64,000 bases of DNA, from the IMG/VR virus record IMGVR_UViG_3300027851_000023, positions 1,331-65,330 of that record. One strand, given 5' to 3'. Shown here one piece after another: positions 8,939 through 62,173 of the stretch. Position 1 is the first letter of the stretch, and each line of letters opens with the position of its first letter. Source of the stretch: a virus. Taxonomy: Duplodnaviria > Caudoviricetes. Position numbers and translations under genes: made by a program. The notes under the pieces are model-generated. The model worked only from the letters and a program-made list of their open reading frames with translations, was not told the DNA's origin and ran no database searches.

Positions 8939-9014
8939 TGGTGCGTCGGGCAGGGTTCGAACCTGCGACCTTCGCTATGTCAAAGCGACGCGCTTCCAAC
9001 TGCGCCACCGACGC
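8939..9014 (-). tRNA. tRNA-Val(GAC)
   Basis: Cloverleaf: acceptor GCGTCGG/CCGACGC, anticodon arm TCGCT-TTGACAT-AGCGA, T loop GGTTCGAACC, encoded ACCA. Confidence 0.93.
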
Positions 9015-9032
9015 ACGATCTGAGCGTCTACT

Positions 9033-9107
9033 TGGTGCGAGAGGTAGGATTCGAACCTACGACCCTCCCCTTGTGACGGGGATGCGCTTCCACTGCGCCA
9101 CTCTCGC
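9033..9107 (-). tRNA. tRNA-Val(CAC)
   Basis: Acceptor GCGAGAG/CTCTCGC, anticodon arm TCCCC-GTCACAA-GGGGA, T loop GGTTCGAATCC, encoded ACCA. Confidence 0.9.
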
Positions 9108-12686: not shown

Positions 12687-12694
12687 GCAACTTG

Positions 12695-13130
12695 CATTTA
12701 AATCGCACTTCATGACCCCGGTGGCCCCGCGCTGCCGGGGTTTCTCGTTTAAATGCAACTTCGATCCAAATGCACTTTGAATCTTAAAGTAGTGGAACGG
12801 GTTGAGCAGACCAACCCGTTCCACCCTAAACTGCTGAAGTTGCTGACAAAAAAGGCACTTTTTGCCAGGGTGGAACGGGTTGAACCCGATTCCCATAAAC
12901 TTCACCACTAGGGTGTTTTTCAGAATCGCCTCCGACCAGTGTGATCGTCGCCAGACAAATAGGGGTCACTCTCAAATGACAACACTCTAGAATCGACTAA
13001 AACCTGTTCCACCTGTTCCACCTATTGATATTGCTAAGGAAAATACCCGGAACAGGTCGGAACACGGTCGGAACAGGTCTGAAACCCGTTCCACCTGCTG
13101 ATCTGCGGCTTTCGAAGTGCGATTTAAATG
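12695..13130. other. Putative replication origin
   Basis: AT-rich non-coding region with repeated GTGGAAC(G/A)GGT / ACC(C/T)GTTCCAC units (12792, 12812, 12870, 13002-13023, 13049-13095), bracketed by a 17-bp inverted repeat at 12695-12711 and 13114-13130. Confidence 0.65.
12714..12750 (+). terminator. Intrinsic terminator after primase
   Basis: ACCCCGGTGGC...GCTGCCGGGGT hairpin followed by TTCTCGTTT. Confidence 0.55.
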
Positions 13131-13194
13131 AGAGTTCGCCCTGGTGCCGGGCAAAAGGCATAGGTCTTTTTTGAAAACTCTCGAATAGCGGGGT

Positions 13195-13236
13195 CGGTGT
13201 CCGCCGCGCTTCCCATCAACCCGTCAAAAGGGACCC
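13195..13236 (-). other. Putative lambda-like cos site (cosQ-like plus cosN)
   Basis: Minus strand GGGTCCC, 23 nt, then CGGCGGACACCG; same spacing as lambda GGGTCCT-N23-GGGCGGCGACCT; lambda-type terminase present. Confidence 0.55.
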
Positions 13237-13342
13237 AAAGCCATTGGAATGATTGATTAAATCGGTCATTGAGACGCGCGGAATCGGGCTTCAAACGACG
13301 CTCTCGAGGTGACGAACAGGCGTCGTGACGCCGCGCCGATCA

Positions 13343-13403
13343 TTTAAACGCATCCCCTGACGCCCCTTCGCAGGGCCCGCCTCGTTTAAACGCATCCCCT
13401 GAC
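13343..13403. repeat. 19-bp direct repeat TTTAAACGCATCCCCTGAC (2 copies, 42-bp period)
   Basis: Exact copies at 13343-13361 and 13385-13403. Confidence 0.9.
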
Positions 13404-13481
13404 AAGGGACGCGAGGTCGTACGGTAGCAGCTGCGCAGGTGATCGGAGGGCGGCCGGATCTGGCCAGGGTCTGCACATAGC

Positions 13482-19458: not shown

Positions 19459-20076
19459 GTGACAACCCCTTTCAAGGATTCAATGATGACCCGGATCAAC
19501 GGCGAAATGATCGCCCAACTCTGTGCTGACGTTCATGCCGACAATGTTGCCGCCGGTTGGTGGTCGGACTTGTCGACGGGCAAGCGCATCGATCGCAACG
19601 TCGGCGAACTGCTGATGCTGATCGTGTCGGAAATCTGCGAGGGCGCAGAGGGCCTGTCCGGCAACCTGATGGACGACAAACTGCCCCATCGGAAGATGAT
19701 CGAGGTCGAACTGGCGGACTTCGCTATCCGGCTGTTCGACCTGGGTGGTGGCCTCGACCTGGCGACAGGCATATCGGAGCAGTTCGACAACATCTGTGCT
19801 GGCGATGCCGTCACCGAGGCGTTTGGCTATTATGGCAGTCAGGGAATCCTGCTGCGCATGATCCGCTTCGTCAGCGCGGCCATGGAACACCACCGGAAGG
19901 GTCGAACGGCCGAGATGTGCCGCCCCCTGGCCATGGCGCTGCACGGAGCCGTACTGCTCGGCAGCACCTTTGATCTGCACATCATGGACGCCGTCGCTGA
20001 GAAGCGCGCGTTCAACGCCATCCGTGAGGATCACAAGAAGGAAGTCCGGCAGCTGGCGGGCGGGAAAAGCTATTGA
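19459..20076 (+). CDS. MazG-like NTP pyrophosphohydrolase
   Basis: LMLIVSEICE..EG...DDKLPHR...EVELAD..IR..D, EK..FN..R.DH. Confidence 0.75.
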   Translation: MTTPFKDSMMTRINGEMIAQLCADVHADNVAAGWWSDLSTGKRIDRNVGELLMLIVSEICEGAEGLSGNLMDDKLPHRKMIEVELADFAIRLFDLGGGLDLATGISEQFDNICAGDAVTEAFGYYGSQGILLRMIRFVSAAMEHHRKGRTAEMCRPLAMALHGAVLLGSTFDLHIMDAVAEKRAFNAIREDHKKEVRQLAGGKSY

Positions 20077-21063: not shown

Positions 21064-21251
21064 TGTCGCAGACGACACCAAAACTATCAGCGAAAGCGAA
21101 GGGTCTAGTGACCCGAGCCATCAATGGCGGTGCAAATCTAACCTGGAAGGGTTCACAGCACCCCGACGACTGGGCTCACATCGAACGGCAGGCCGAGCAG
21201 ACACGCGCCAAACTGGAAGAGTACATCGCCGGTCTGGAAGCAACCCGATGA
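21063..21251 (+). CDS. Hypothetical protein
   Basis: Coupled at both ends; GGAG RBS. Confidence 0.6.
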   Translation: MSQTTPKLSAKAKGLVTRAINGGANLTWKGSQHPDDWAHIERQAEQTRAKLEEYIAGLEATR

Positions 21252-22660
21252 TCGCCGCTCACCCTGCCTTGAGCAGTCACCCGGAGCAGCAGTATCTCGA
21301 CCTGCTCCGTACTTTGCTAACCTCGACGGATCGCCCGGATCGCACCGGGACGGGCGTGCGCGGCATCTTCGACTACCGGATGGAGTTCGACCTGGCGCAC
21401 GGCTTCCCGCTGCTGACCACGAAGAAACAGTTCTTCAGGGGAATGGTTACCGAAATTCTGTGGTTTATATCTGGATCAACAGACGTTCGGGTTCTCCAAG
21501 AACAGCGCGTCAACTTCTGGGATTCGTGGCAGGGCGACGATGGTACGATCGGCTATGGTTACGGCAAGCAAATGCGGAATCAAGAGTTTTGGACCGCTCT
21601 GACGCCCAAGGTATACGAGCCTGAACCATGGGACGATGTTGTCGAGGTTCGTTCCGTGTATGGTGTTGGCTACTACGGGTGCGACGATAAGAAAGATCCG
21701 TTCTACCAAATCCTCGTTGACACTTGGCGCCAGATGCTGCGTCGTTGTTACGACTCTACGTCGCTTTCATTTAACGCCGGATATGGTGCGAACGGTGTCC
21801 ATGTGGATAACCGCTGGCATTGCTTTGCAAACTTTCAATCCGACGCCCGGAAGTTGCCGAACTGGCCGCTGAAGGCAGAGTTTCCCAGTCAGTATTCGAT
21901 CGACAAGGACACCCTCTGGGCCTCCAACCGCTATGCTCCGCACACTGTGATGTGGGCGTGTGATCAAACACAGAACGCCAACCGCTGCAATACGGCGTTT
22001 TTCACTGCTGTCGATCCTGCCGGAAACACCAAGTGGATGACCTCAATAGGAAGTACGAAACGAGACTATGACTTAAACGTCAGTGCCGTACATCGCTGTC
22101 TCAATGGGAAACTACGCACTCACCATGGATGGTCGGACTTCCAGTATATCGAATGTCCGCCAGGGCAGGTTCTGCGCTACATGCGCGTCGACCAGTTGCT
22201 AAATCTGTTCTGCGGATTGAAGCACGAGCCGTTCGGTCGCCGCCACATCATGACGCTTTGGAACCCCGGCGACCTTGGTCGCACTACGCTCCCGCCCTGC
22301 CACGGTAGCTTGGTTCAGTTCTACGTTGAGAACGATGGTCGCCTGAGCCTGAAGATGAATCAGCGCAGCGCTGACGCGTTTCTGGGCCTACCGGTAAACA
22401 TCGCCAGTTACGCCCTGCTGCTGACCATGTTCGCCAGTGCGCTCGATCGTCAACCTGGCCGGTTCATCTGGGATGGCGGCGACGTGCATCTCTACTCGAA
22501 CCATGTCGAGCAGGCCCAGGAGCAGGTCTCGCGTGTGCCGAGGCCCTTCCCGCAGCTGGCGGTCGCCAAGCGTCTCGATTTGGACTCCTGGTCGATCGGC
22601 GACTTCACCGTCACCGGTTATGAGCCCCACCCACATATCGCGGGAGATGTGGCCCGATGA
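21248..22660 (+). CDS. thyA: Thymidylate synthase with an in-frame HNH-type endonuclease insert
   Basis: DRTGTG, FPLLTTK, EILWF, LPPCH, QRSADAFLGLPVNIASY, DVHLYSNH; about 200 extra aa between YGKQMR and VDQL. Confidence 0.92.
   Translation: MIAAHPALSSHPEQQYLDLLRTLLTSTDRPDRTGTGVRGIFDYRMEFDLAHGFPLLTTKKQFFRGMVTEILWFISGSTDVRVLQEQRVNFWDSWQGDDGTIGYGYGKQMRNQEFWTALTPKVYEPEPWDDVVEVRSVYGVGYYGCDDKKDPFYQILVDTWRQMLRRCYDSTSLSFNAGYGANGVHVDNRWHCFANFQSDARKLPNWPLKAEFPSQYSIDKDTLWASNRYAPHTVMWACDQTQNANRCNTAFFTAVDPAGNTKWMTSIGSTKRDYDLNVSAVHRCLNGKLRTHHGWSDFQYIECPPGQVLRYMRVDQLLNLFCGLKHEPFGRRHIMTLWNPGDLGRTTLPPCHGSLVQFYVENDGRLSLKMNQRSADAFLGLPVNIASYALLLTMFASALDRQPGRFIWDGGDVHLYSNHVEQAQEQVSRVPRPFPQLAVAKRLDLDSWSIGDFTVTGYEPHPHIAGDVAR
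21581..22186 (+). mobile_element. HNH-like homing endonuclease domain with C-terminal HTH inside thyA
   Basis: WRQMLRRCY...YG..GV.V..RW..F.NF..D...YSIDKD...YAP...W...Q..NR, then AVHRCLNGKLRTHHGW; visibly lower GC. Confidence 0.75.
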
Positions 22661-22986
22661 GCGACCTGGACAAGTCCGTCGCTCTGCTCACCGATCCGAA
22701 GACGTGGCGGATTCTGGGCTATCTGACGCCGTATCCTGACCATGCCGTACCCACAGCGCGCCTGAACCAGGCCATGGGTCTGACGTCGATCAAGACCGAG
22801 ACGCAGCGGACCCGATTGTTCCTTCGGCGGATGGCCGCCGAGGGACTGGTGGAGGGCGCGGCGGACATGGCCGGTGCCGTTCGCCGCTGGAAGATCACCG
22901 ACAAGGGACGCGATCTGGTTCGCAGTGTCAGTGAGCGTGAGCGAAAGCCACAACCGTTTAGGTTATCAGCGAAAAAAGCACGTTGA
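22657..22986 (+). CDS. Winged-helix-like protein
   Basis: LRRMAAEGLVE...RWKITDKGR wing pattern. Confidence 0.6.
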   Translation: MSDLDKSVALLTDPKTWRILGYLTPYPDHAVPTARLNQAMGLTSIKTETQRTRLFLRRMAAEGLVEGAADMAGAVRRWKITDKGRDLVRSVSERERKPQPFRLSAKKAR

Positions 22987-23042
22987 CGGCGACTAACTTT
23001 CACGTCAAAGGTGACAAACAAACCGCCCAGAGAAAAGTCACC

Positions 23043-23330
23043 ATGCCCGTCCCCCTCACGACCACCGAGGCCCGGATCGTCGAACGTCTGCGTGACGGCC
23101 CCTGTGACACTGACGTGTTGCAGGCGGCCGCGGGCATCACAAGTCGAAAGTCGCTGCACGTCATGGTCCACCGCATCAACACCAAGGGCTTCACAGTCAA
23201 GTGTCAGAAGCGCTGGGCCCATGGGTCGGTCGGCAGCAACACCGGCCAATATCACCTGGTCACAGATCCCGAGCCGCCGTTTGTCGGCGACTATCTTTCA
23301 ATGGCCCGATCGATGGGAGCCGCAGCATGA
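23043..23330 (+). CDS. Stand-alone winged-HTH protein
   Basis: LTTTEARIVERL...SLHVMVHRINTK...YHL resembles an OmpR-type DNA-binding domain; preceded by TTGACG and an operator. Confidence 0.6.
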   Translation: MPVPLTTTEARIVERLRDGPCDTDVLQAAAGITSRKSLHVMVHRINTKGFTVKCQKRWAHGSVGSNTGQYHLVTDPEPPFVGDYLSMARSMGAAA

Positions 23331-23530
23331 ATGAGACCCTGAAACTGCGTGATCCCGCATCGCCTGAGGACGGTTTCGACTTCACAGCGATCGGTGCCGG
23401 CGAGGTCTACATCATCGCTCGAGACACCGGTAGCGCGGTTGGCGAGGGCCCCATTTCTCGCACCCAGGTCGACCAACTGCGGGACTTTCTGAACGCCGTC
23501 GCGCCGCAAAACGCAGGAGAGAAGGCATGA
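23327..23530 (+). CDS. Hypothetical protein
   Basis: GGGAG RBS, ATGA coupling. Confidence 0.6.
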   Translation: MNETLKLRDPASPEDGFDFTAIGAGEVYIIARDTGSAVGEGPISRTQVDQLRDFLNAVAPQNAGEKA

Positions 23531-23718
23531 CCGAACAAGAATTCTGCGCGCGCTTCGTCACTGAAATGATGACCGCCGCGCCCATTTACGACGGCTCGCC
23601 AGCCGAGTTGCGGGCCTATGCCAACGCGGTCGCGCCGACGTATTGGGCCGAGGAAGACCAGCGCGAGGAAGGCCCCGAAGCCTGCGCTCAGTCCGACATC
23701 GGCTATTGGGAGGATTGA
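23527..23718 (+). CDS. Hypothetical acidic protein
   Basis: RBS and coupling. Confidence 0.65.
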   Translation: MTEQEFCARFVTEMMTAAPIYDGSPAELRAYANAVAPTYWAEEDQREEGPEACAQSDIGYWED

Positions 23719-23721
23719 GGC

Positions 23722-24243
23722 ATGACCGACACGAACAATGGCGGGGGTGATCACACGGCCTCTGGATCGGTGGATGATTTGGCCCACGAACTGGTGGGCT
23801 TGGCGCAGCTTCTCTCGATTGAGAAGGGTCCGAACTACCTGGGGCGGGTCGGCTTTCTGAACCGGGCGGCGGGCCAGGTCACAGCGCTTCGTGCCGCCCT
23901 CCAGCCCCACCCCAGCCAGCAGGCCGGGCCTTCTACCATCAAAGACGGTGACGCTTCAGACGCTGAAATGGGCCAAGCCTGCCGCAAGTTCAATATCGGC
24001 ACACCGGAACGGCTAGCGGAAGTGATGGCCTCTCGGACCAGCCAGCAGGCCGGGACGGAGGGGGCGCGAGAGATCGCGGCGCGCGCTGTTTATGCCTCTC
24101 GACCGGCTCGCTGGCTATACCCCGAGGAGCGGAACATTTCGTGGGACGAGGCCCAAACCGAATGTCCCGACCGGATTGCCACGATCTACCGTGACGTGGA
24201 CGCCATCCTCACCGCCCTCTCCCCCAAGACGGGGGAAGGGTGA
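23722..24243 (+). CDS. Hypothetical mosaic protein
   Basis: Internal 17-bp repeat CCAGCCAGCAGGCCGGG at 23912 and 24038. Confidence 0.6.
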   Translation: MTDTNNGGGDHTASGSVDDLAHELVGLAQLLSIEKGPNYLGRVGFLNRAAGQVTALRAALQPHPSQQAGPSTIKDGDASDAEMGQACRKFNIGTPERLAEVMASRTSQQAGTEGAREIAARAVYASRPARWLYPEERNISWDEAQTECPDRIATIYRDVDAILTALSPKTGEG

Positions 24244-24392
24244 TGGGCTGGGCAATCTATCTCGTGGTGGGCGTGGCCCTGTCCTTCGTGTTCGAGCCTG
24301 AAGATGAGGACCGATCTGTTGGATGGGTCTGCGCTATGGCAATGTTCTGGCCTCTCGCCCTTTTTGTCGCCCTCATGAGAGTTCGACTGTGA
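24243..24392 (+). CDS. Small membrane protein (49 aa)
   Basis: MGWAIYLVVGVALSFVF...FWPLALFVALMRVRL; coupled at both ends; below ORF-track cutoff. Confidence 0.6.
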   Translation: MGWAIYLVVGVALSFVFEPEDEDRSVGWVCAMAMFWPLALFVALMRVRL

Positions 24393-24844
24393 CCGCCCCC
24401 CAGGAACCGACCGCCGGGGAGATCGTCCGCGACTGGCTGGACATGGCGGAACGAGCGCCCGTCACGTCGTGCAAGGTATTGCGACACCCTCCTATATGCC
24501 AGTCTGAGATCGACGCCATCCGGTCCCTCGTCGAGAGCCGCGCCCCTGCGTCTGTCGCAGCGGAGGGGGAGGCTGTGGCGTGGCGTTATCGCCAACGGAA
24601 CCCAGACATGCCGGGTTGGTCGGTCACGATGGACCAGAGCATTTCTTCATGGCCCAACCTGATCGTCGAGCCTCTCTACGCCCATCCCGCAAGGATGCCG
24701 ACGCGGCAACAGGTCCAACTGAAAATCCATGAGTGGATACGGGACCGGACGACGACGTCGCTCAAGTCTGCGATCACGCCCGACCAAATCGACCCGCTCG
24801 CAGACATGATGATCGCCCTATTCACCGACACAAGGGGGGCGTGA
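24389..24844 (+). CDS. Hypothetical protein
   Basis: GTGA-coupled; EAVAWRY...EPLYA motif common in phage accessory genes. Confidence 0.6.
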   Translation: MTAPQEPTAGEIVRDWLDMAERAPVTSCKVLRHPPICQSEIDAIRSLVESRAPASVAAEGEAVAWRYRQRNPDMPGWSVTMDQSISSWPNLIVEPLYAHPARMPTRQQVQLKIHEWIRDRTTTSLKSAITPDQIDPLADMMIALFTDTRGA

Positions 24845-24846
24845 GC

Positions 24847-25203
24847 ATGGCAGAGATATTCGTCTTCGGCTCGAACCTGGCCGGTCGCCACGGCAAGGGC
24901 GCGGCCCTGTTCGCCCGTCAGAACCACGGCGCGATCTATGGCTGTGGCGAGGGCAGGCAGGGCAATAGATACGGCATTCCAACCAAAGGCTTCCGCTTGG
25001 AAGTGTTAACTCTGGAACAGATCGACCGGCACGTTGCGTCGTTCTTAGAACACGCCCGTCTGTCGCCATCTGACACCTTCCGCGTGACCCCGATTGGCTG
25101 CGGCCTCGCGGGATACAAGCCGCATCAGATCGCGCCGATGTTCGCCGGGTCGCCAGAGAACGTGATCCTTCCGTCCGAGTTCAAGGACCACCCCCATGAA
25201 TAG
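24847..25203 (+). CDS. A1S_2505-family / macro-like phage protein
   Basis: IFVFGSNLAGRHGKGAA, YGIPTK, VTPIGCGLAGY. Confidence 0.75.
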   Translation: MAEIFVFGSNLAGRHGKGAALFARQNHGAIYGCGEGRQGNRYGIPTKGFRLEVLTLEQIDRHVASFLEHARLSPSDTFRVTPIGCGLAGYKPHQIAPMFAGSPENVILPSEFKDHPHE

Positions 25204-25945
25204 CCCGGTTCCTATGACCCACTCACTGATCAACACAGGTGCCGGCTGGACCTGCATCAACTGCAAGCGCGCCTGGGACCAGGGCGAAAGCCCGCCCGAG
25301 CATTGTGTGTCTGACGACTATCCGTTCAACGCCGAGGAAGTCGGGGTTCGGGCCATATTCGACGGTGAGCGAGTGCCGCCTCATTTCGTCAATGTGTCGA
25401 TCACCGGCCCACTGGACGACGATCCTGACTGTCAGATACGCTTCTTTCCGTTCGAGCCTGCCGAGATGACCAATCTTCGACTGCCGGATACACCTGAAAT
25501 GCGAAACTATCTCGACGCCATCGATCGGTATCGCGGCACGCTGCCGATGCCCAAGACGGCACAGGTCGGCGGCCGGCACTATTCGGACCTGGCCATCCAG
25601 CCGACCGAGTTCTGCATGAAGAACGGGCTCGACTTCTGCATCGGATCGACGCTGAAGTATCTGACCCGCTGGCGAGCCAAGAACGGCGTCGAGGATCTGC
25701 GCAAGGCCCGTCACTTCGTCGAGATCAGGGAGTCGCATTGGCAGGAAATCCAGCCCGTCGGCAGGATCAGAATCACGATGCTCGAGTATGTCACGCGCAA
25801 CCGGATTCGCCCGGACGATGCGGAGGCCCTGTACCGCCTGGAAGCCTACTACAACGCCGCGGCCTCGCCGGGCACCGCTGCCCACGGTGTCGGCCCGAAG
25901 CGATTGATCGGGGAAATCGACAATCTGATCGCCCGCGCCGCTTGA
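25196..25945 (+). CDS. DUF3310 domain protein
   Basis: QVGGRHY...IQP.EF...KYLTRWRAKNGVEDLRKA. Confidence 0.8.
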   Translation: MNSPVPMTHSLINTGAGWTCINCKRAWDQGESPPEHCVSDDYPFNAEEVGVRAIFDGERVPPHFVNVSITGPLDDDPDCQIRFFPFEPAEMTNLRLPDTPEMRNYLDAIDRYRGTLPMPKTAQVGGRHYSDLAIQPTEFCMKNGLDFCIGSTLKYLTRWRAKNGVEDLRKARHFVEIRESHWQEIQPVGRIRITMLEYVTRNRIRPDDAEALYRLEAYYNAAASPGTAAHGVGPKRLIGEIDNLIARAA

Positions 25946-26000
25946 CACCCCATACTTTCACTTTCAATGTGTGTTTCACACTCTCTTAGGAATCACCGCC

Positions 26001-26288
26001 ATGACGAAACGCGCTTTCTTCCGCCGTCGCAAGAACGGCCCGAACAACGACAACATCTTCGGCCTGCGCGGTCTGCAGAATCTGTTCCGCCGCGGCGCTG
26101 CCGGACGGATTCCCGCCGAGGATTTCGCCCGTATCCGGGCCGGCGTGCCTGCTCGTCGAGATACCGGACACCATCCGGGCGAGACCGGTCGTCAGCTGGC
26201 GCAGCGTCTGCGCGCCCAGGCGACCACCGAGACCCCGGTCGAAGCGCCCAAGCGCGTCCGCAAGTCCCGCGCCAAGGTCGCCGCCTGA
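26001..26288 (+). CDS. Basic hypothetical protein
   Basis: AGGA RBS; follows TTGACA and an operator; Arg/Lys-rich. Confidence 0.65.
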   Translation: MTKRAFFRRRKNGPNNDNIFGLRGLQNLFRRGAAGRIPAEDFARIRAGVPARRDTGHHPGETGRQLAQRLRAQATTETPVEAPKRVRKSRAKVAA

Positions 26289-26433
26289 TGCCGGTGTTCA
26301 GCAGCCGCGCTCGGTTGATGACCTCCACGTCACCCCTGGCCTTGGCAGGGCGGGGCATCGGTGGCTCGAACTACGTCGAGTTCCAGTTTCCGCCTATGGC
26401 CATTCTGCCAACCTGGTTCGAGGAAAGCGTGCC

Positions 26434-26676
26434 ATGATCGGCTGGGCACAGATCATCACCATCGTCTGCCTGGTCGTCACCTATGGCTGGGCGTTCTGGA
26501 ACATCGCACTGGCGGCGATCCGGGCCCTGCAGTGGGCGGAATACACCCGGACACTACCGGGTTCGCCGCATCGCTTCTGGCCGCTGTTCGTCGAAGAAGC
26601 AGGCACACACCTGGTCACCGTCGCCTCCATGACGTGCTGGATCGTGCTGCTGACCTGGGGCGGTTTCTGGTCATGA
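26434..26676 (+). CDS. Two-TM membrane protein
   Basis: Two hydrophobic segments; ATGA coupling. Confidence 0.6.
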   Translation: MIGWAQIITIVCLVVTYGWAFWNIALAAIRALQWAEYTRTLPGSPHRFWPLFVEEAGTHLVTVASMTCWIVLLTWGGFWS

Positions 26677-26778
26677 TCTCCTGCCTGATCGCACTCACGC
26701 CCGTCGTCCTCCTGGCCGCGATTTTCTGGCCCCATCGGCAGCGCGATCAGCGCCGGCCCGAGCGCAGGAGTCGCGCCC

Positions 26779-27120
26779 ATGACTGACGAAGACCTTCTGG
26801 GCGACCTCGCCCATGAGCCCCGCAACGCCCGCAGCCGAGATGAAACCATGGACGACGAATCCTTCGACGCCAGTCCCGACGTCCTGACATCGGCCGCCCA
26901 GGGCCGCCTGCGCACCCTCATCGAGCGGATCGAACGGCTCGAGGAAGATGAGGCCGCCGTGAAGGTCGACAAGAAAGAGGTCTACGGCGAGGCCAAGGGG
27001 GAGGGCTACGACGTCAAGATCCTTCGCCAGGTCATCCGCATCCGCAAGCAGGACAAGGCCAAGCGCCAGGAACAAGAGGCGATCCTGGACCTCTATCTTT
27101 CCGCGCTCGGGGAAATCTGA
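26779..27120 (+). CDS. gapR: GapR (DUF2312) nucleoid-associated protein homologue
   Basis: AQGRLRTLIERIERLEE...KEVYGEAKGEGYDVKILRQVIRIRKQDKAKRQEQEAILDLYLSALGEI, very close to Caulobacteraceae GapR as I recall it. Confidence 0.92.
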   Translation: MTDEDLLGDLAHEPRNARSRDETMDDESFDASPDVLTSAAQGRLRTLIERIERLEEDEAAVKVDKKEVYGEAKGEGYDVKILRQVIRIRKQDKAKRQEQEAILDLYLSALGEI

Positions 27121-27353
27121 TGGACCTGTTTCACGAGATTCCAGATGGGATGGTCATCCTGCGCACCAAGGGCGTGTTCAAACAGGCGAAGGTCTTCAGG
27201 CGCGGTGCCGACGTCTTCGCCGCACACGGGTCCGGCTTCATTCGGTTGCTGCAGCATAGCGGCACCACGATCCCGACAACGCACTGGCTCGACCTGGACG
27301 CACAGAACGTCAGTCACCCTGTCGGCCGCGCGCCAACCTGGAACGCCCGCTGA
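27120..27353 (+). CDS. Hypothetical protein
   Basis: TGATG-coupled to both gapR and ctrA. Confidence 0.7.
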
Positions 27354-28036
27354 TGAGAATCCTGCTCGTCGAAGATGATCGCTGTACAGCGCAGTCGATC
27401 GAACTGATGATGAAGTCGGAAGGCTTCAACGTCTACACGACCGACCTGGGCGAAGAAGGCGTCGATCTCGCCACGATCTACGATTACGACCTGATCCTGC
27501 TGGACTCGCACCTTCCCGACATGGCCGGACTGGATGTGCTGCGCAAGATCCGGCTCGCCCGCATCAACACGCCTGTCATGATGCTCAGTGCCTACGACGA
27601 TATCGAATATCTGGTGCGCACGTTCGGTGCGGGTGCCGACGACTGGCTGGCCAAGCCCTTCCACAAGGATGCTCTGATCTGCCGATCGTGGGCCATCATT
27701 CGGCGGTCCAAGGGTCACGCCCAGGCCGTGATTCGCACCGGCAACTTGGACCTGAACCTCGACGCCAAGGAAGTCAGCGTCGCCGGCAAACTGGTTCATC
27801 TGACTGGCAAGGAATACATGCTGCTCGAACTGATGGCGCTGCGCAAAGGCGCAACCATCACGAAAGAGATGTTCCTGAACCACCTGTACGGCGGCATGGA
27901 TGAGCCCGAGATCAAGATCGTCGATGTGTTCGTCTGCAAGCTGCGCAAGAAACTGCGCCAGGCGGCGTCCGACGCCGTGATCGGCACGAACTGGGGCAAA
28001 GGCTACGTCCTGCGCGACCCGCCCTTGACCGCCTGA
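27353..28036 (+). CDS. ctrA: CtrA cell-cycle response regulator homologue
   Basis: [29 protein letters not shown](51), [47 protein letters not shown]. Confidence 0.95.
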
Positions 28037-28083
28037 GATTTCACCTTAGAAGTGACAACCGAACAATAAGAGAGACCGCCACT

Positions 28084-28434
28084 ATGCTCGTGAAGACCCT
28101 GAATGGACAAATCCGCAAGACCGAAGGGTCCGTCAAACTGGAACTGGCCACTGCTGCAGGCGTGATCATCGTCGGCCTGGTCAAGTCGGAACTGGTCGCC
28201 GGGGTCGCCGCCCTGCACCCTGACAACAAGGCCGAGACCTATCTGGAAGTCGTGAACGGGGTGCTGAAGCATACCGACGACGGCGCCCGTCAGTCGGCCC
28301 GTGAGGTTGCAGGGATCGAACCGGCAGAAACCGTGGCCCTGGACGATTTCACCGACGACCTGCTCGATGACGTCCCGCAGGCGACTCTGCTCGGGGGTCT
28401 CGACGTCGAGGATCTAGACGATCTGCTCGCGTGA
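28084..28434 (+). CDS. Hypothetical protein with acidic tail (EDLDDLLA)
   Basis: RBS; follows a perfect operator at 28041. Confidence 0.7.
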   Translation: MLVKTLNGQIRKTEGSVKLELATAAGVIIVGLVKSELVAGVAALHPDNKAETYLEVVNGVLKHTDDGARQSAREVAGIEPAETVALDDFTDDLLDDVPQATLLGGLDVEDLDDLLA

Positions 28435-28697
28435 TGACCGCCTTCGAACAGTGGTTCTCGGGCGACTGGCAGAAACTTCTGCACAGCGTGCCCGATGACC
28501 GGACGGTGCTGTCGTCCGGCTTCACGATCGCGACCGCCAGTTGGGACCGTCGGGCCGCCTATCTGCTGTGGGTCGAACTCGGCAAGCCCGATGCGTCCTG
28601 GGTCCAGCAGATGCGCCGCTTCAAAGAAACCCTGGCGAAACAGCCACCGCCGACGTTCGCGCCGATCGCCAAAGACATTGAGGACTTGCTGTCATGA
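28431..28697 (+). CDS. Hypothetical protein (DIEDLLS tail)
   Basis: Coupled ORF. Confidence 0.65.
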   Translation: MMTAFEQWFSGDWQKLLHSVPDDRTVLSSGFTIATASWDRRAAYLLWVELGKPDASWVQQMRRFKETLAKQPPPTFAPIAKDIEDLLS

Positions 28698-28978
28698 CCG
28701 ACAAACGGTTTTTGCAAGACGGCTTCGACAAGCAACTTGGTCATCTGATTGAAGAAATGGGTGAGGTTGGGGCCGCGGCCGGAAAAACCCTTCGATGGGG
28801 TCCGCTATCCACCAATCCGCTTTTGCCGCCTAACGAGCGTGAGGCGAACATCACCTGGCTGTGGCGCGAAATGCACGACTTGCAGCACGTTCTGAATCGC
28901 CTAGCCCTCACGATGCAGGCCGACTTCCCCGTCGAATGCACCGACATTCCCCTACGAACAGGCGTGAGTGAATACTGA
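28694..28978 (+). CDS. MazG-like protein
   Basis: LIEEMGEV..AAGK.LRWG...L..EMHDL. Confidence 0.55.
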   Translation: MTDKRFLQDGFDKQLGHLIEEMGEVGAAAGKTLRWGPLSTNPLLPPNEREANITWLWREMHDLQHVLNRLALTMQADFPVECTDIPLRTGVSEY

Positions 28979-29403
28979 TGAAGATCATCACCTGGGGCCC
29001 CTCGGCCGATGGCCCGCCTTCGCAAGCCTGGCTCGCGCGCTATCTCGACGGCAAGCGCTTCCTGCCCGCGCTGATTTCGGGCTCTACCGAAGATGCCGTG
29101 AAGACCAAGGCCCAGGAGTTCTGGGACGCTGAGACGACGCGCTTCGCCAAGCGTGAGGGTCGCAAGCCCGAGACGGTAGCCGATACCCTGGTCGAGCGCG
29201 TGGGCGCAGCTGATCCGGTCGTCGAGGGAGTCGCCCACCTAACGGCGGCTGAGCGCGCCTGGGGTGAAGACGTGGCCGTAGACTTCATGATGACAGCCAT
29301 GGAGCGCGTCGTCGCTTCGGCTGACCCTGATGGTGAGCGCGACATCATTCGCGAAGAACTTGGCCTTCCCACACTAGGCGACCTGGACGACCTGCTCGCA
29401 TGA
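28978..29403 (+). CDS. Hypothetical protein (DLDDLLA tail)
   Basis: Coupled ORF. Confidence 0.65.
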   Translation: MKIITWGPSADGPPSQAWLARYLDGKRFLPALISGSTEDAVKTKAQEFWDAETTRFAKREGRKPETVADTLVERVGAADPVVEGVAHLTAAERAWGEDVAVDFMMTAMERVVASADPDGERDIIREELGLPTLGDLDDLLA

Positions 29404-30437
29404 CTCCCTCAGTTGTGCTGTATCAGGGTGACTGTCTAAAAACCCTTCGTTCCATGGAGTCGGAGTCGGTAGACTGCGTGGTAACAAGCCCGCCGTATTG
29501 GGGCCTGCGGGACTATGGTGTTGACGGACAACTGGGTCTTGAGCCGACTCTGTGTTCGCATATCGAAGCGCTCGTATTGCTTTTTCGCGAAGTGCGTCGA
29601 GTGCTGAAGCCGAAAGGCACTTGCTGGGTAAACTACGGAGACTGTTATGCTACGCAGAGAAACGGTCGATCCGCTGCGGACACAAAGAAGGCGGGTAAAG
29701 ACGACCGCACGTTCAGAGATAAACCCTTTGACACCACCAAGGCCGCAGGCTTGCTCTCTGGAAACTTGTGTCTGATACCTGAGCGACTCGCCTTGGCTTT
29801 CCAAGATGACGGTTGGATAGTTCGCTCGCGCATTGTGTGGGGCAAGCGAAACACAAAGCCGGACTCAAGCGGGCGGTTCCGACCATCCTATAATCACGAA
29901 ATGATATGGATGTTGTCAAAACAGATGCCCTGTTACTACGACTCTGTTGCGGTTCGCCAGCCCACGGCGGCATCAACCCGATCCAGGTTGCAACAGGACG
30001 TCACAAACCAAATCGGAAGTTTTCGGCAGCCTGGTAGAACGAATGGCCCGCTGAAGGCGGTAGGCTCGATCGAAGATCGTCTTCTGCGTGCATATGAGGC
30101 TGCAGAAGTGGATGTCTGGGAAATGGCGACAGCTTCCTTCAGAGAGGCGCATTTCGCCACGTTTCCCCCAGAACTAGTTCGGCGATGCGTATTGGCCGGG
30201 TGTCCCGAAGGCGGTGTCGTGTTGGATCCATTTATGGGCGCAGGAACCACCGCGTTAGTTGCCCGAGAACTTGGTCGTCATAGCGTGGGCATCGAACTTA
30301 ATGCTGAATACATAACCATCTCACGTCGTCGCCTGGGCTTGCCGACATCAACGGGAATCCCCGCAGACCTGCGCGATCTCCTGGATATTCCGTGTCCTGT
30401 GCAGTTTGCGGACGATTTGGCCGATCTATTTTTATGA
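29400..30437 (+). CDS. N4-cytosine/N6-adenine DNA methyltransferase (beta class)
   Basis: VVTSPPYW catalytic motif, HFATFP, VLDPFMGAGTT SAM-binding motif, GIELN. Confidence 0.92.
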   Translation: MTPSVVLYQGDCLKTLRSMESESVDCVVTSPPYWGLRDYGVDGQLGLEPTLCSHIEALVLLFREVRRVLKPKGTCWVNYGDCYATQRNGRSAADTKKAGKDDRTFRDKPFDTTKAAGLLSGNLCLIPERLALAFQDDGWIVRSRIVWGKRNTKPDSSGRFRPSYNHEMIWMLSKQMPCYYDSVAVRQPTAASTRSRLQQDVTNQIGSFRQPGRTNGPLKAVGSIEDRLLRAYEAAEVDVWEMATASFREAHFATFPPELVRRCVLAGCPEGGVVLDPFMGAGTTALVARELGRHSVGIELNAEYITISRRRLGLPTSTGIPADLRDLLDIPCPVQFADDLADLFL

Positions 30438-30589
30438 GACTTTCACCTGACAGTTGACAGTTTGCGCGTTCGGTGAAAAAGTAACCCTACCGATCCTGCG
30501 TCCGACTTTGACGTGGGTTAGGTTGTTCGTCCGGGGCGCACGAACTACAAGAATAGGAATGCGTTCCCATCAGGAAGGTCGGGTAATCA

Positions 30590-30877
30590 ATGTCTACACA
30601 GAATGTCTTGTCGGAGTTGCCGTTCGTCGTGTCCATCAAAGGTATGGCTGTCTCCCTCTGGGAGCCTGTGACCACCGGGGTCTGGGGCACCGACAATGAG
30701 GCCGGTCGCAATCACGCCGACGCCTTGATCGAGGTCATCAGGGCGCACGATGCGCCGCCGCTGCTCGGCCAGGTCGTCAAGGCCCTCGGCCGAAGCGGAC
30801 GATGGAGTGGTGTCGAGGTCGGCTTCACCCAGCGACTGGCGGAATGGGCTGTTGCGGGCTACGGGATCGCCAACTAG
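30590..30877 (+). CDS. Hypothetical protein
   Basis: Stand-alone ORF after TTGACA and an operator at about 30443-30459. Confidence 0.55.
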   Translation: MSTQNVLSELPFVVSIKGMAVSLWEPVTTGVWGTDNEAGRNHADALIEVIRAHDAPPLLGQVVKALGRSGRWSGVEVGFTQRLAEWAVAGYGIAN

Positions 30878-31275
30878 GAGCCCGGCTTCCATCCGGCCGC
30901 CGCAATCGCAGCTGCTCCCACTGCGAAGATCCAGGGCGCCGTTTGACGCAACCAGTCGACGAGCGCCTTGGCCCCCTTCTGCTGGTCGTGAAGCGATTGC
31001 ATCTTGTCGATGCGGCTGTCGATCTTCTCGATCCACCCCACCAATCGCTCAATCTCGCGACCGTGCTTCTGTTCTTCCAGTCGGATCAGTCGACTGTTCA
31101 TGCCTTCCACGCGCTCGCCCAGGCGTTCCATGGCGCGCGTGTTCGCCTCCATATGGGCGCTGACCTGTTTGCCCTGTAGAGCGATGGCGTCGGCGACCTG
31201 ACGCATGGCGTGGATCTCAGCCGCGACCAGGGCTTCCGGTTTGTCTACGGACATCATGATCTGCTCGTCGCCCAT
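30874..31275 (-). CDS. Coiled-coil protein with C-terminal TM (lysis-cassette associated)
   Basis: Heptad-rich body, C-terminal hydrophobic anchor. Confidence 0.65.
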   Translation of the reverse strand: MGDEQIMMSVDKPEALVAAEIHAMRQVADAIALQGKQVSAHMEANTRAMERLGERVEGMNSRLIRLEEQKHGREIERLVGWIEKIDSRIDKMQSLHDQQKGAKALVDWLRQTAPWIFAVGAAAIAAAGWKPGS

Positions 31276-31276
31276 T

Positions 31277-31555
31277 CTATTTGCATCCCCGCAGCACGAC
31301 GCGCGCCTCGGCGATCCAGGCGTCTCGCTCGAGGAACCCTGCACCCAGCAGACGAAGACGCTCGGAAGCATCCGAGGCGGCGACGATATCCTCGCGGTTA
31401 ACCCGGAAGTTCGGCTCGACCTGGGCGTTCGCCGGGACACAGGTCGTCGCGACCGGCACCTGAACCTCGATCGTGCGGATGATCGGTTCGGCCGGCGTGC
31501 TGGCGCAGGCAGCGACCAGGGTTACCGCGAACACGGCGGCGAAGGTGCGGATCAT
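31277..31555 (-). CDS. Rz1: Outer-membrane spanin (lipoprotein)
   Basis: Signal peptide with lipobox VAAC, Pro/Val-rich, terminal Cys. Confidence 0.75.
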   Translation of the reverse strand: MIRTFAAVFAVTLVAACASTPAEPIIRTIEVQVPVATTCVPANAQVEPNFRVNREDIVAASDASERLRLLGAGFLERDAWIAEARVVLRGCK

Positions 31556-31986
31556 TGGAAGGCCTCCAGGACGGCGCGGTCGATCTGCTCGACCCGTTCA
31601 CAAAGAGTGGCACCCGTCGCCGGGGCGGACAGCAGGCGGTTCAGACGGGTGTTCAGACCCGCATTATCCCGGCGGGCGGCGGACAGGGCGGCGTCAGCTG
31701 CGGCCAGTCGCGCCGCCGATTGCTCGCCGAGAGCGACGATCTTCTTGTTCTGCTGCTCGACCGAGGCTTCCAGTGTCAGGACGTTGCCGCGGCATTGGCC
31801 GAACCTGGCCCGCCAGCCGGTCGTCGGATGCTCGACCGAGGACTCCAGCTTGTCGCGCTCGCGCTCGACCCCCGCCTTCTGTACGGTGGCGACGCCGAGC
31901 AGCACGGCCAGGCCAACAGCGACAGCCGTGGCGATGGGACCAGCAAGTCGGGATGTGAGCACAGACCAGGCGAACGTCAGCATCAT
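31552..31986 (-). CDS. Rz: Inner-membrane spanin
   Basis: N-terminal TM plus coiled coil, directly after the endolysin. Confidence 0.75.
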   Translation of the reverse strand: MMLTFAWSVLTSRLAGPIATAVAVGLAVLLGVATVQKAGVERERDKLESSVEHPTTGWRARFGQCRGNVLTLEASVEQQNKKIVALGEQSAARLAAADAALSAARRDNAGLNTRLNRLLSAPATGATLCERVEQIDRAVLEAFQ

Positions 31987-32762
31987 CGGATGACCTTTCG
32001 GGCTTCATCGGTCTTGGTGATCCGCTCGGCCAGTCCGTTCGAACCCCCGTTGACCCGGCGCGTGACTTCCTTGATGTCGCCGATCAGGGCAGGCCCGACG
32101 CAGCCGTGCGAGACGAAGAACTTCGCTGCGGCCAGGCAGGACTTGTGGATGTCCGTGCGCAGTTCCTCGGGCGAGAAGCCCGACGCCTGGGTGTTGGCGC
32201 GACCGGTGATCTGCTTCACCCCCGAGCCCCTGAAGCGCCAGCCGTCGCCCGGCTGCGTGTTCCCCAGGTTCTTCCTGCCCCACTCACCGCCGTAGATGAT
32301 GTTGGCGATCGCCTCCTGATCGGCGGGGCGACCCGGCGCGCGGCCATAGCGTTCGGCATCGACCAGGCTGATACGGTGCCGGCCGAACATCGTCTTCAGT
32401 GCCTCGACTGAATAGTTCAGATTCTCGGTGAGCGTGGAGAAGCCCGCGCTCTCGACCCACATCTGGCCGAGCCAGTTTTCCAGTACCCTATGCTGTTGAA
32501 GGTCAGGTGTCGCCGCGATCGCTGCTTCCAGGGCGGGCAGGGTGCCGGGCACGGCTCGTGGTGCCCAGGATGCGAACGCCACGGTGTCCAGCCGGTCACT
32601 GCTGAGCGCGGGACCAGACGCCGCGCGGATCAGTGCGCGCAAAGCCAGGCGACCTTCTTCGCCCCATTCGCCGTCGGCACCGTAGCGCGGCATGGGGAAG
32701 CCGGCGTCGATGATGGTCTGCTGGATCTCGGCGATGTCCTGATTACGGGCCATGGAGGTCAC
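31983..32762 (-). CDS. Endolysin, glycoside hydrolase family 19
   Basis: Q..VESAGF...ENLNYS, LGNTQPGDGWRFRGSG..QITGRAN, VNGGSNGL.ER; N-terminal YGADGEWG peptidoglycan-binding-like segment. Confidence 0.88.
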   Translation of the reverse strand: MTSMARNQDIAEIQQTIIDAGFPMPRYGADGEWGEEGRLALRALIRAASGPALSSDRLDTVAFASWAPRAVPGTLPALEAAIAATPDLQQHRVLENWLGQMWVESAGFSTLTENLNYSVEALKTMFGRHRISLVDAERYGRAPGRPADQEAIANIIYGGEWGRKNLGNTQPGDGWRFRGSGVKQITGRANTQASGFSPEELRTDIHKSCLAAAKFFVSHGCVGPALIGDIKEVTRRVNGGSNGLAERITKTDEARKVIR

Positions 32763-60987: not shown

Positions 60988-62172
60988 TCACCCGAGCAGG
61001 TCGGCCAGGTCGTCCTGACGAAGAAGCCACGCGGAATACCATTCCATCATCGCGCGCCGCTGCGGCATCCAGCGGGCGTTGTTGTAGGCGCTGCGGACCT
61101 TGTTGGAAGGAACGTGGGCTAACTGGCGCTCGATCCAGTCCTCCTGAAAGAGCGTGCTTTCGTTCAGCACGGTCGAGGCCAGAGAGCGGAACCCGTGAAT
61201 GGTCGCGCGATGATGATAGCCCATTCGATAGAGCGCGTAGAGCATGGTGTTCTCAGAAATCGGTTTGCCCCGCACGCCGGGCAGAACCCAGTGACTGTCG
61301 CCGGCAATGACCTTGAGTTGGGCAAGCAGTCCCTGGACATGAGGCGTCAGCGGAACGATGTGCTCCCGGCCCATCTTCATCCGTTCGGCCGGCACCCGCC
61401 AGATGTCCTTTTCGATCTCGGACCACTGCGCCATTCGCATCTCACTGGTGCGAACGAAGGTGTGCATCACGACCTCGACGGCAAGACGGGTCTGCTTTTC
61501 ACCGTCATAGGCGCGCAGTTTGATCAGGAACTCAGGAACGTCTGCGACCTTCAAACTGGCCTGGTGCTGGACCCTGGGCGCGGGCTTCAGCGCACCGACC
61601 AGATCCGCGGCCGGATTGCGCTGCGCCTTGCCGCACGCGATGGCGTAGCCGAAAATCTGACTGACGTTCTGCAGGGACCGCTTGGCCATGTCGATCGCCC
61701 CGCGGCCTTCGACCTTTCGAATGGCCGCCAGAACGTCTTGGGCACCGATGTCTTCGATCGGCGACTCGCCCAGGTCAGGGAAGACGTCGCGCTCGAGCCG
61801 ACGCCGCACGCGTTCAAAGTGCGGGAGGGCCCATCGCACCTTCATGCCATCCAGCCATTCGTCGGCGACGGCCTGAAAGGTCGGTCGGTTGTCCGGGGCC
61901 TGCTCCGCAACCGCCTTGGCCCTCGGTGACGGGTCTTTGCCGTCAGCCAGTTCCTTCCGCGCGGCTGCCCGTCGTTCGCGGGCCTCGGCCAACATGACGT
62001 CGGGGTAGGCACCCAGGCTGATCGTCTTCTGCCTGCCCTCGAACCGATAGGACAGGCGCCAGAGCCGGGCACCGTTGGGCTGGACCAGTAGGTGCATCCC
62101 CGCGCCGTCGGTCATTTTGTAGGCGGTCGCTCGGCCACGGGCGTTCTTGCAGGCGGTGTCGGTCAGCGGCAT
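60988..62172 (-). CDS. int: Tyrosine integrase, P4-like
   Basis: Arm-binding N-terminus (YKMTDGAGM.L.V.P.G...W), VRTSE, RMKM..EH.VPL, HGFR, QLAH, AYN. Confidence 0.93.
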   Translation of the reverse strand: MPLTDTACKNARGRATAYKMTDGAGMHLLVQPNGARLWRLSYRFEGRQKTISLGAYPDVMLAEARERRAAARKELADGKDPSPRAKAVAEQAPDNRPTFQAVADEWLDGMKVRWALPHFERVRRRLERDVFPDLGESPIEDIGAQDVLAAIRKVEGRGAIDMAKRSLQNVSQIFGYAIACGKAQRNPAADLVGALKPAPRVQHQASLKVADVPEFLIKLRAYDGEKQTRLAVEVVMHTFVRTSEMRMAQWSEIEKDIWRVPAERMKMGREHIVPLTPHVQGLLAQLKVIAGDSHWVLPGVRGKPISENTMLYALYRMGYHHRATIHGFRSLASTVLNESTLFQEDWIERQLAHVPSNKVRSAYNNARWMPQRRAMMEWYSAWLLRQDDLADLLG

Positions 62173-62173
62173 T

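Follow-up and report, generated by a model that had tools for sequence, protein, structure and literature searches.

This analysis concerns a gene for a CtrA-like response regulator in the genome of a tailed phage (Duplodnaviria; Caudoviricetes), IMG/VR record IMGVR_UViG_3300027851_000023. The record comprises 65,330 bp and is rated 100% complete by CheckV; the stretch analysed, termed the window below, covers its bases 1331-65330 (64,000 nucleotides), and all coordinates given here are those of the window. CtrA, the central cell-cycle switch of the alphaproteobacteria, is normally kept in check by phosphorylation, by proteolysis at defined places in the cell and with the help of accessory proteins. 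The phage gene, the only ctrA-like gene in the record, is the third member of a set of overlapping genes with the following features (aa, amino acids; ORF, open reading frame):

26779-27120, + strand: gapR homologue, 113 aa (PF10073, 4e-31; NF052541, 140.3 bits against a cutoff of 140), first of the coupled trio
27118-27122, + strand: TGATG stop/start overlap of gapR and orf77
27120-27353, + strand: orf77, an orphan 77-aa ORF between gapR and ctrA
27351-27355, + strand: TGATG stop/start overlap of orf77 and ctrA
27353-28036, + strand: ctrA-like gene, 227 aa plus stop, ATG start
27353-27712, + strand: receiver domain, aa 1-120 (AlphaFold2 model, alignment and 4QPJ match)
27503-27505, + strand: codon of the phospho-acceptor D51
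27644-27646, + strand: codon of the switch residue W98
aa 84-120, within the receiver domain: alpha4-beta5-alpha5 region
27728-28012, + strand: winged-helix DNA-binding domain, aa 126-220, with the recognition helix at aa 188-204 (Pfam, AlphaFold2 model and alignment)
28013-28036, + strand: shortened C-terminal tail RDPPLTA and stop

The protein combines a receiver domain (Pfam PF00072, residues 3-109, 89 bits) with an OmpR-type winged helix (PF00486, Trans_reg_C, residues 146-220, 64.7 bits), which is the architecture of the approximately 230-aa CtrA family. Its best NCBIfam match is the CtrA equivalog NF045991 with 346.5 bits, as against 152.6 bits for the second-best family, PmrA, so that it is derived from CtrA and yet lies outside the curated equivalog range; three cellular CtrA controls scored 411.9, 415.0 and 433.4 bits with the same model. 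Among solved structures, the Brucella CtrA receiver of the ChpT complex comes closest (PDB: 4QPJ, E-value 2.9e-45). An AlphaFold2 model built from a 34-row alignment displays the canonical fold in both domains with a mean predicted local distance difference test score of 84.2. In the modelled receiver, alpha1 spans residues 10-22, beta4 75-79, alpha4 84-93, beta5 97-100 and alpha5 105-120, while the modelled DNA-binding domain comprises helices at 152-163, 171-179 and 188-204 and a wing at 210-220. The intact reading frame, the presence of both Pfam domains and the identity of 69-72% to the best-matching cellular CtrAs together indicate a real, intact, full-length phage-encoded CtrA-type response regulator, as an earlier reading made from the letters of the window (the sequence-only reading) had proposed.

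The gene is flanked by phage genes on both sides and thus lies within the phage genome rather than in a host flank. Exact contigs of the likely source run tile positions 24000-32000 and join ctrA to phage genes at both junctions. A run from a second study (X2, a freshwater metagenome) contains identical pieces at 27621-27819 (199 nt inside ctrA), 29776-29978 and 30663-30813, with the phage pieces at a matched low depth of 2-5. The phage is therefore present in more than one sample, and all the runs containing it are freshwater metagenomes, with no RNA run listed among those that match positions 24000-32000. The possibility that ctrA is an assembly artefact or chimera is ruled out by the junction-bridging contigs together with the occurrence of the same allele in the second study. 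At 80% likeness, gapR and ctrA attract a large excess of read depth, which stems from cellular homologues in the same metagenomes.

Divergence, constraint and origin of the phage CtrA

The phage protein was compared with the 80 best cellular loci out of more than 600 matched stretches, one genome per species, which span the Caulobacterales, Hyphomicrobiales/Rhizobiales, Rhodobacterales and others; the 151 positions at least 95% conserved among these 80 CtrAs are termed conserved sites. A protein search over 5.8 billion entries recovered matches of at least 90% identity only to the protein itself, on 2 contigs, the two samples being identical in sequence. The top matches P0002-P0004 each carry an internally repeated stretch and were set aside as relatives, being read as probable misassemblies. 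Among 401 Caulobacteraceae genomes (including the unpublished genomes G030, G280 and G394, with one ordinary match each), a match was found in 379 and none exceeded 72% identity. Cellular CtrAs are on average 84% identical to one another (minimum 71%), whereas the phage protein averages 68% to the cellular set. It is changed at 27 of the 151 conserved sites, in comparison to a mean of 0.49 and a maximum of 8 in cellular CtrAs.

Seven of these changes lie in receiver residues 1-81 (V3I, L20M, K41T, L52S, L66I, I77M and G80A), six in the alpha4-beta5-alpha5 region (K87L, Y98W, T100A, E107A, A110C and H113W) and 14 in the DNA-binding domain. The sequence-only reading held that the changes cluster on the alpha4-beta5-alpha5 face, taken here as residues 82-120 with the support of the AlphaFold2 model. 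Counting all changes, this is not borne out, in that 6 of 20 conserved sites are altered there as against 21 of 131 elsewhere (p=0.20). The notion survives for radical substitutions (BLOSUM62 score of 0 or below), which number 5/20 on this face and 8/131 elsewhere (p=0.016, with the threshold picked after the data had been seen). Hence, the face appears to take harsher substitutions, but the changes overall are spread across both domains.

Relative to the consensus of the Caulobacteraceae, changes are present in the phage protein at 27 of 151 conserved and 39 of 72 variable sites (Fisher p=1e-7, odds ratio 0.18). As conserved sites are spared, the pattern is not one of decay, and the conserved/variable contrast argues that the gene is under constraint; neutral decay, which had been named beforehand as an observation that would count against a function, thus finds no support. 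These results bear on the view that ctrA is a recently captured passenger with no adaptive role, drifting to loss. A score just under the curated equivalog cutoff, many substitutions at otherwise invariant sites and a single known lineage, identical in sequence in two samples, could all be accommodated by such a view. Nevertheless, the ORF is intact with every catalytic residue present, the substitutions avoid conserved sites, the codon usage is ameliorated to that of the phage, the gene is translationally coupled in an operon, and independent viral lineages also keep full-length CtrAs, making a passenger very improbable.

Some Caulobacteraceae genomes contain three to four CtrA-like genes, as was seen among five genomes examined for such copies (G047, G012, G313, G229 and G345; loci L110-L123). 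Their paralogues are 49-67% identical to the phage protein, in comparison to 70% for the main copies, and all nine aligned paralogues keep K87, E107 and A110 and end in AA. Membership of the phage protein in a cellular paralogue group was rejected, given that the paralogues are less identical to it than the main copies are and do not possess its special residues. The cellular CtrAs of Brevundimonas, Caulobacter and Phenylobacterium share with the phage copy the two-domain architecture and length, the phosphorylation and docking residues, the dimer salt-bridge residues, T168/T170 and the polar residues of the recognition helix; the phage copy is set apart from them by its 27 conserved-site changes, the Y98W substitution, a seven-residue tail ending in TA and its score of 346.5 bits.

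Phylogenetic analysis, which the sequence-only reading had listed as a check along with the alignment, recovers strong divergence and favours a placement with Caulobacteraceae. In a quick 86-row tree the phage protein falls within this family with weak support (a value of 82 in the SH-like approximate likelihood-ratio test), at the end of a terminal branch of 3.93 as against a median of 0.046. In a free tree of a 32-row subset its position was not resolved; when it was constrained to group with the Caulobacteraceae, the likelihood rose by 7.5 units over that of the free search, with a p-value of 0.78 in the approximately unbiased test (p-AU). Two Brevundimonas genomes encode a GapR that shares 79% identity with the neighbouring phage GapR, as against 63-70% for the best match in each Asticcacaulis, Caulobacter and Phenylobacterium genome; at the DNA level, the phage gapR shares 79-81% identity with gapR genes of Brevundimonas jumbo phages. 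These similarities make a Brevundimonas-like host the most reasonable inference. We accordingly favour, though with no more than an even chance of its being right as a whole, a reading in which ctrA was captured from a Caulobacteraceae host, has been kept under selection and supplies CtrA activity to the advantage of the phage.

Retained and altered surfaces of the regulator

The phospho-acceptor pocket, namely D8/D9, D51, S79 and K101, is kept in full. ChpT contacts CtrA mainly via alpha1, with S15 and M19 placed against N33 and L18 against L37 (Bruederlin et al. 2023, PMC9981736). S15, L18 and M19 are all kept, predicting that docking is preserved, and the phage alpha1 is of the Caulobacterales/Rhizobiales type and not of the Rhodobacterales type, with L20M as its sole conserved-site change. 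The same source predicts the CtrA dimer salt bridges D96-R118 and D97-R111 and backbone hydrogen bonds of R67 and R117, and describes E107 as the intramolecular bridge partner of R111 (PMC9981736). The phage protein retains D96, D97, R111, R118, R67 and R117, while E107 is replaced by alanine, with K87L, A110C and H113W on the same face. A conversion of an intermolecular K87-E107 salt bridge to a hydrophobic pair had been considered and was dropped, as the source makes E107 the intramolecular partner of R111. No second receiver domain, HisKA domain, other histidine kinase or GcrA was found among the phage proteins. With the alpha1 docking and dimer residues kept and no kinase of the phage's own, the protein looks wired to the phosphorelay of the host, which speaks against the earlier suggestion of an insulated CtrA.

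On the output side, Delaby et al. 2019 (PMC6847485) describe a highly conserved stretch at residues 167-191, in which T168 and T170 determine whether late-S or G1 promoters are selected. Both threonines are kept in the phage protein; T167A, L169I, L187I, I190V and I194V replace residues that are 100% conserved across the cellular set. Changes in the recognition helix are limited to I190V and I194V with the polar residues kept, and the YGGMDEPE loop between helices 2 and 3 of the DNA-binding domain is unchanged. Thus, the input face and the base-reading face both appear conserved, and the alignment agrees with the prior claim that D51, S79, K101 and the recognition helix are retained.

Alterations affect the switch, the flanks of the phosphorylation site and the C-terminal tail, as well as portions of alpha4 and alpha5 and, within the DNA-binding domain, its first helix and its wing. 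Switch position 98 is occupied by tryptophan in the phage protein, by tyrosine in all 80 cellular CtrAs and in the five other full-length viral CtrAs, and by tyrosine or phenylalanine in the nine cellular paralogues; W98, L87, A107 and C110 are all absent from these three sets. Residues flanking the phospho-aspartate and the conserved serine and lysine are likewise replaced (L52S, N53H, G80A and T100A). The positions one and two residues after the aspartate and the one following the conserved threonine or serine influence phosphorylation kinetics. The residue-level details given at the outset, namely W98, the SH dipeptide after D51 and the PLTA end, are all correct in the alignment.

A C-terminal Ala-Ala is the Caulobacter-type tag for the ClpXP protease. 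The phage tail that follows the WGxGYxx motif, RDPPLTA, has seven residues, in comparison to 9-25 (median 12) in cellular tails. Of the 80 cellular CtrAs, 37 end in AA, 13 in TA (e.g. Sinorhizobium fredii, L087) and 11 in SA; the AA ending is found in 24 of 27 loci with titles naming Caulobacterales and in 14 of 14 Caulobacteraceae sequences (five main CtrAs and nine paralogues from five genomes). No relic of a longer tail was found in another frame downstream of ctrA. The PLTA tail is therefore atypical for the inferred host group. Other orders do have CtrAs ending in TA, which leaves a loss of recognition by ClpXP hypothetical; a phage CtrA that is re-tuned and possibly resistant to proteolysis is plausible.

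The same combination of kept and altered residues could be read in the opposite sense, as that of a dominant negative or phosphate sink, which would drain phosphoryl groups of ChpT away from host CtrA and CpdR, form inactive heterodimers, or occupy CtrA boxes without activation. Host CtrA output would then be lowered, with such consequences as relief of the replication block or, through an arrest of pilus or flagellum receptor synthesis, the exclusion of superinfection. The retention of the alpha1 docking residues and of D96, D97, R111 and R118 makes competition and heterodimerisation sterically plausible, phosphorylation could be uncoupled from activation by the alterations in the switch and alpha5, which fall where cellular CtrAs are invariant, and a temperate phage with an integrase would suit a role in lysogenic conversion or exclusion. 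Against this, the essentially intact helix 2-3 loop and recognition helix represent more conservation than a mere sink needs, and the 14 conserved-site changes in a DNA-binding domain under strong overall constraint suggest that the output domain is in use. On balance, a dominant negative seems unlikely, though it is the foremost of the competing explanations.

Phage genome, operon and candidate DNA targets

The trio gapR-orf77-ctrA is placed in a long plus-strand block of replication and nucleotide-metabolism genes, and the two TGATG overlaps indicate that the three genes are translationally coupled as an operon. A promoter and terminator scan of 22500-31500 recovered one promoter-like site where 2.1 were expected and seven terminator-like sites where 5.8 were expected, none above chance; hence there is no sign of a separate transcription unit. 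Orf77 has no Pfam or PHROG match and no usable Atlas relative; a complex prediction for the phage CtrA with orf77, whose own fold is uncertain, scored 0.00 against a mark of 0.32. The GC content at third codon positions is 0.81 in ctrA, 0.78-0.85 in other phage genes and slightly higher in Caulobacteraceae ctrA genes (0.86-0.90), indicating that the codon usage of ctrA has been ameliorated to that of the phage. GapR homologues were detected by tblastn in 102 of 50,697 deposited phage records, and gapR alone is common in alphaproteobacterial phages; a 2025 paper on Erythrobacter phages nevertheless calls GapR a first in a phage genome (PMC12185513). The frequency of gapR in phage records makes its presence beside ctrA ordinary by itself, and the notable point about this neighbourhood is the translational coupling. 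Of the earlier proposal that the two genes form a cell-cycle hijack module, the operon has proved real, but the presence of gapR adds little that is distinctive.

PHROG matches in the phage include a DNA polymerase, helicases, a primase/helicase, thymidylate synthase and a tape measure protein, as well as a portal, large terminase, major head protein and endolysin. Its core proteins are mostly 35-63% identical to their counterparts in Rhodobacter phage RcPutin, a member of the RcD cluster (Casjensviridae), with 53% for the terminase, 63% for the portal, 53% for the head protein, 56% for the polymerase and 52% for the integrase. These similarities make it a distant relative of the Rhodobacter RcD phages, of siphophage type. 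It is probably temperate, given the tyrosine integrase:

60988-62208, - strand: tyrosine integrase, complete

Apparent lysogens have been reported for the RcD cluster (Rapala et al. 2021, PMC8601537). Several further features of the window were recorded. Two adjacent tRNA-Val genes with the anticodons GAC and CAC are located at 8939-9107 (- strand). A 470-aa ORF at 21248-22660 (+ strand) has thymidylate synthase matches, strongest at residues 291-469 in two stretches, and an HNH endonuclease match at residues 135-303, which suggests a homing-endonuclease insertion or fusion. Across the window, GANTC is strongly avoided, with 152 copies where 368 +/- 18 would be expected, and GATC is enriched, with 589 copies for an expected 442 +/- 26. 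An N6/N4 methylase gene at 29400-30437 (+ strand) matches the CcrM model at its C-terminal stretch alone, with 86 bits against a cutoff of 830.

The consensus of the CtrA box is TTAA-N7-TTAA. A simple pattern search of the 64-kb window found no exact box (0.02 expected) and a single one-mismatch box at 12698, which is at chance level (1.22 expected); the variants TTAA-N6-TTAA and TTAA-N8-TTAA and the TTAACCAT half-site were not found in the window. TTAA itself is depleted, with 20 copies against 39 +/- 6 expected, seven of which fall within 12690-13450. Canonical-box targets of the phage CtrA, if bound at all, would accordingly lie in the host chromosome, there being no CtrA boxes in the phage. 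The region 12690-13450, observed directly after the primase/helicase gene, is a non-coding, AT-richer stretch of about 750 bp with a GC content of 0.49-0.52. It contains iteron-like GTTCCACC / GGTGGAAC(R)GG units (5 of the 7 exact copies in the window) and a 23-nt inverted repeat (12689-12711 / 13114-13136). All five RTTTAAAY sites of the window are found at 12697-13391, giving ten strand matches where 1.75 were expected, a value reached in none of 100 shuffles; they are spaced 42-375 bp apart, which is not one helical turn. The region is probably an origin or a regulatory hub of the phage.

This concentration of sites raises the possibility of a phage-directed regulator, in which CtrA of changed specificity controls phage promoters or the phage origin (for instance through RTTTAAAY in the 12.69-13.45 kb region), with the host relay serving as a cell-cycle sensor. 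Besides the RTTTAAAY sites, which exceed expectation, and the seven TTAA copies in the same region, this could account for the conserved-site changes that the DNA-binding domain carries in its wing and in the alpha1' and alpha2' helices. In the RcD phages, a CtrA-like winged helix is joined to DUF6456 at a similar genome position (see below), which hints that this DNA-binding domain may have had an ancestral regulatory role in phages, and phages that read the host cell cycle via CtrA sites do exist (Mascolo et al. 2022, PMC9437464). On the other hand, dimeric boxes of the TTAA-N6/7/8-TTAA type are wholly absent, the spacing of RTTTAAAY does not follow the helical turn, the recognition helix has kept its polar residues, and an AT-richer repeat region resembling an iteron origin would contain such motifs anyway. 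We consider a phage-directed regulator rather improbable, somewhat more so than a dominant negative.

Returning to the favoured reading of a captured ctrA that supplies CtrA activity, the phage protein would be phosphorylated by the host CckA-ChpT relay, the phage itself being without a kinase. It would bind the same TTAA-type boxes as host CtrA and would act on the DNA of the host, at the replication origin and across the CtrA regulon. With less certainty, Y98W, the flanking changes L52S/N53H/G80A/T100A and the surface changes K87L/E107A/A110C/H113W may re-tune the phosphorylation kinetics and the equilibrium between active and inactive states, and the trimmed, non-AA tail may lower ClpXP-dependent clearance. 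Were this so, the host would be unable to turn the phage-supplied CtrA activity off at the proper time, and the cell would be held in a CtrA-high, non-replicating state favouring the phage. Several observations weigh against this scenario. The NF045991 score does not reach the curated cutoff of 350. The DNA-binding domain carries 14 conserved-site changes (V134L, T140E, Q156M, M157L, L161M, S162A, T167A, L169I, L187I, I190V, I194V, E211G, V213N and R216K), of which those in the wing (E211G, V213N and R216K) and T167A/L169I may have shifted specificity or promoter choice. With TA endings in 13 of the 80 cellular CtrAs, the phage tail may still be a ClpXP tag. CheY Y106W, the equivalent switch substitution, is hyperactive, but CheY belongs to a different receiver subfamily. 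The host, finally, is assigned from sequence.

Other viral CtrAs and the significance of phage-borne regulators

A scan of IMG/VR revealed nine loci with CtrA-like genes. Five of these encode full-length CtrAs with receiver and Trans_reg_C domains (L002, L003, L004, L005 and L007), scoring 309-364 bits against NF045991. The contexts of the viral loci are mostly phage-like, in early or replication regions: ctrA lies between a DNA polymerase/primase and a ligase in L004 and adjoins a DNA polymerase in L003; the gene in L009 is near a helicase and gapR; L005 carries gapR and a homologue of the window ORF 19459-20076; and L007 has a transposase-type gene and a RecE-like exonuclease nearby. The flanking genes of L002 gave no match. 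The viral contigs range from 32% to 61% GC, and every ctrA-like gene follows the codon bias of its own contig. The viral CtrAs are each changed at 18-50 of the 151 conserved sites relative to the cellular consensus, and every one other than the window protein is closer to cellular CtrAs than to the window protein. A single clade of the six full-length viral CtrAs was rejected (log-likelihood 25 worse, p-AU 0.012). These results support several independent viral captures of ctrA and do not prove them, because long branches are in play.

Certain conserved sites are changed recurrently, namely K41, L66 and S162 in five of the six viral CtrAs and V3, L32, L52, M57, I77, H113, H149, Q156, L169, L187 and K199 in four of the six. 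Differences in site tolerance together with some shared ancestry could partly explain this recurrence. In L003 (5207-6031) and L005 (1340-2080), position 51 is glutamate and position 8 proline, neither state being found in the 80 cellular CtrAs; these two look like phosphorylation-independent forms. CtrA D51E is active. A 165-kb viral contig, L010, encodes at 5929-6327 a 133-aa protein consisting of the CtrA DNA-binding domain alone, without a receiver (163.8 bits, model positions 124-224). In RcPutin, gp59 (L092:1646-2251, - strand), annotated only as a helix-turn-helix protein, consists of DUF6456 joined to a winged helix that matches the CtrA DNA-binding domain at 44% identity across 75 residues; it is roughly syntenic with the window ctrA and lies near an ADP-ribosyltransferase homologue, as in the window. 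In all, 21 Rhodobacter phage records matched the CtrA query. The other viral CtrAs (L002-L007 and L010) and gp59 thus resemble the window protein in being CtrA-derived, strongly diverged and located in early or replication regions of phages. They differ from it in that the window CtrA keeps D51 and alone has W98, whereas L003 and L005 have E51, L010 has no receiver and gp59 is fused to DUF6456.

Given the above forms, one may tentatively envisage that ctrA has repeatedly been stolen by alphaproteobacterial phages and remodelled, along no fewer than three routes, so as to evade control by the host, although we would sooner doubt than accept this wider proposal in its entirety. Along the first route, that of the window phage, phosphorylation would be kept while the switch residue is altered and the degradation tail trimmed; along the second (L003 and L005), the regulator would have become phosphorylation-independent through E51 and destruction of the acidic pocket; along the third, the receiver would have been dropped, as in L010 and in the RcD gp59 with its different N-terminal domain. 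In the window phage, a ChpT-phosphorylated, hyperactive and/or long-lived CtrA would lock the Brevundimonas-like host into a state of high CtrA without replication, in which phage DNA is served by the co-translated GapR and the replisome of the phage.

Phage copies of host cell-cycle regulators are already known, and CtrA would be a further case among them. When the phage CtrA is compared with the 50,697 deposited phage records, its best match over the full length is 38% identical, reflecting generic OmpR-family similarity, and the sole match above 60% is partial and on an unannotated 4-kb fragment. Literature searches, with subscription journals mostly outside their coverage, did not retrieve a phage-encoded CtrA. 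The phiCbK-like Caulobacter phages encode GcrA, for which Gill et al. 2012 (PMC3556154) propose an altered replicative state of the host and possible resistance to degradation. They resemble the window phage in carrying a copy of a host cell-cycle master regulator in a phage of a dimorphic alphaproteobacterium, and differ in that they carry GcrA, whereas the window phage carries CtrA and no GcrA. The lytic-deferment phages of Mascolo et al. 2022 (PMC9437464) likewise have a programme tied to the CtrA pathway, in Caulobacterales and Hyphomicrobiales hosts; these carry dense clustered sites for host CtrA, while the window phage carries the regulator and, by the simple pattern search, no box cluster. 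The same source also mentions CcrM-like methylases in phages.

The phage CtrA can be regarded as a natural separation-of-function allele, in which the input and DNA-binding surfaces are kept while the switch, the alpha5 surface and the tail are changed. As such, it points to residues that matter for activation, for the choice of dimer partner and for recognition by ClpXP and its adaptors, and the recurrent viral changes at K41, L66, H113, Q156 and S162 suggest host-control surfaces that have yet to be mapped. It would also extend the known use of the host cell cycle by phages from reading CtrA, or carrying copies of GcrA, CcrM or GapR, to supplying the master regulator itself. Overall, the phage ctrA suggests a direct manipulation of the host cell cycle by the phage and points to a recurrent viral strategy.

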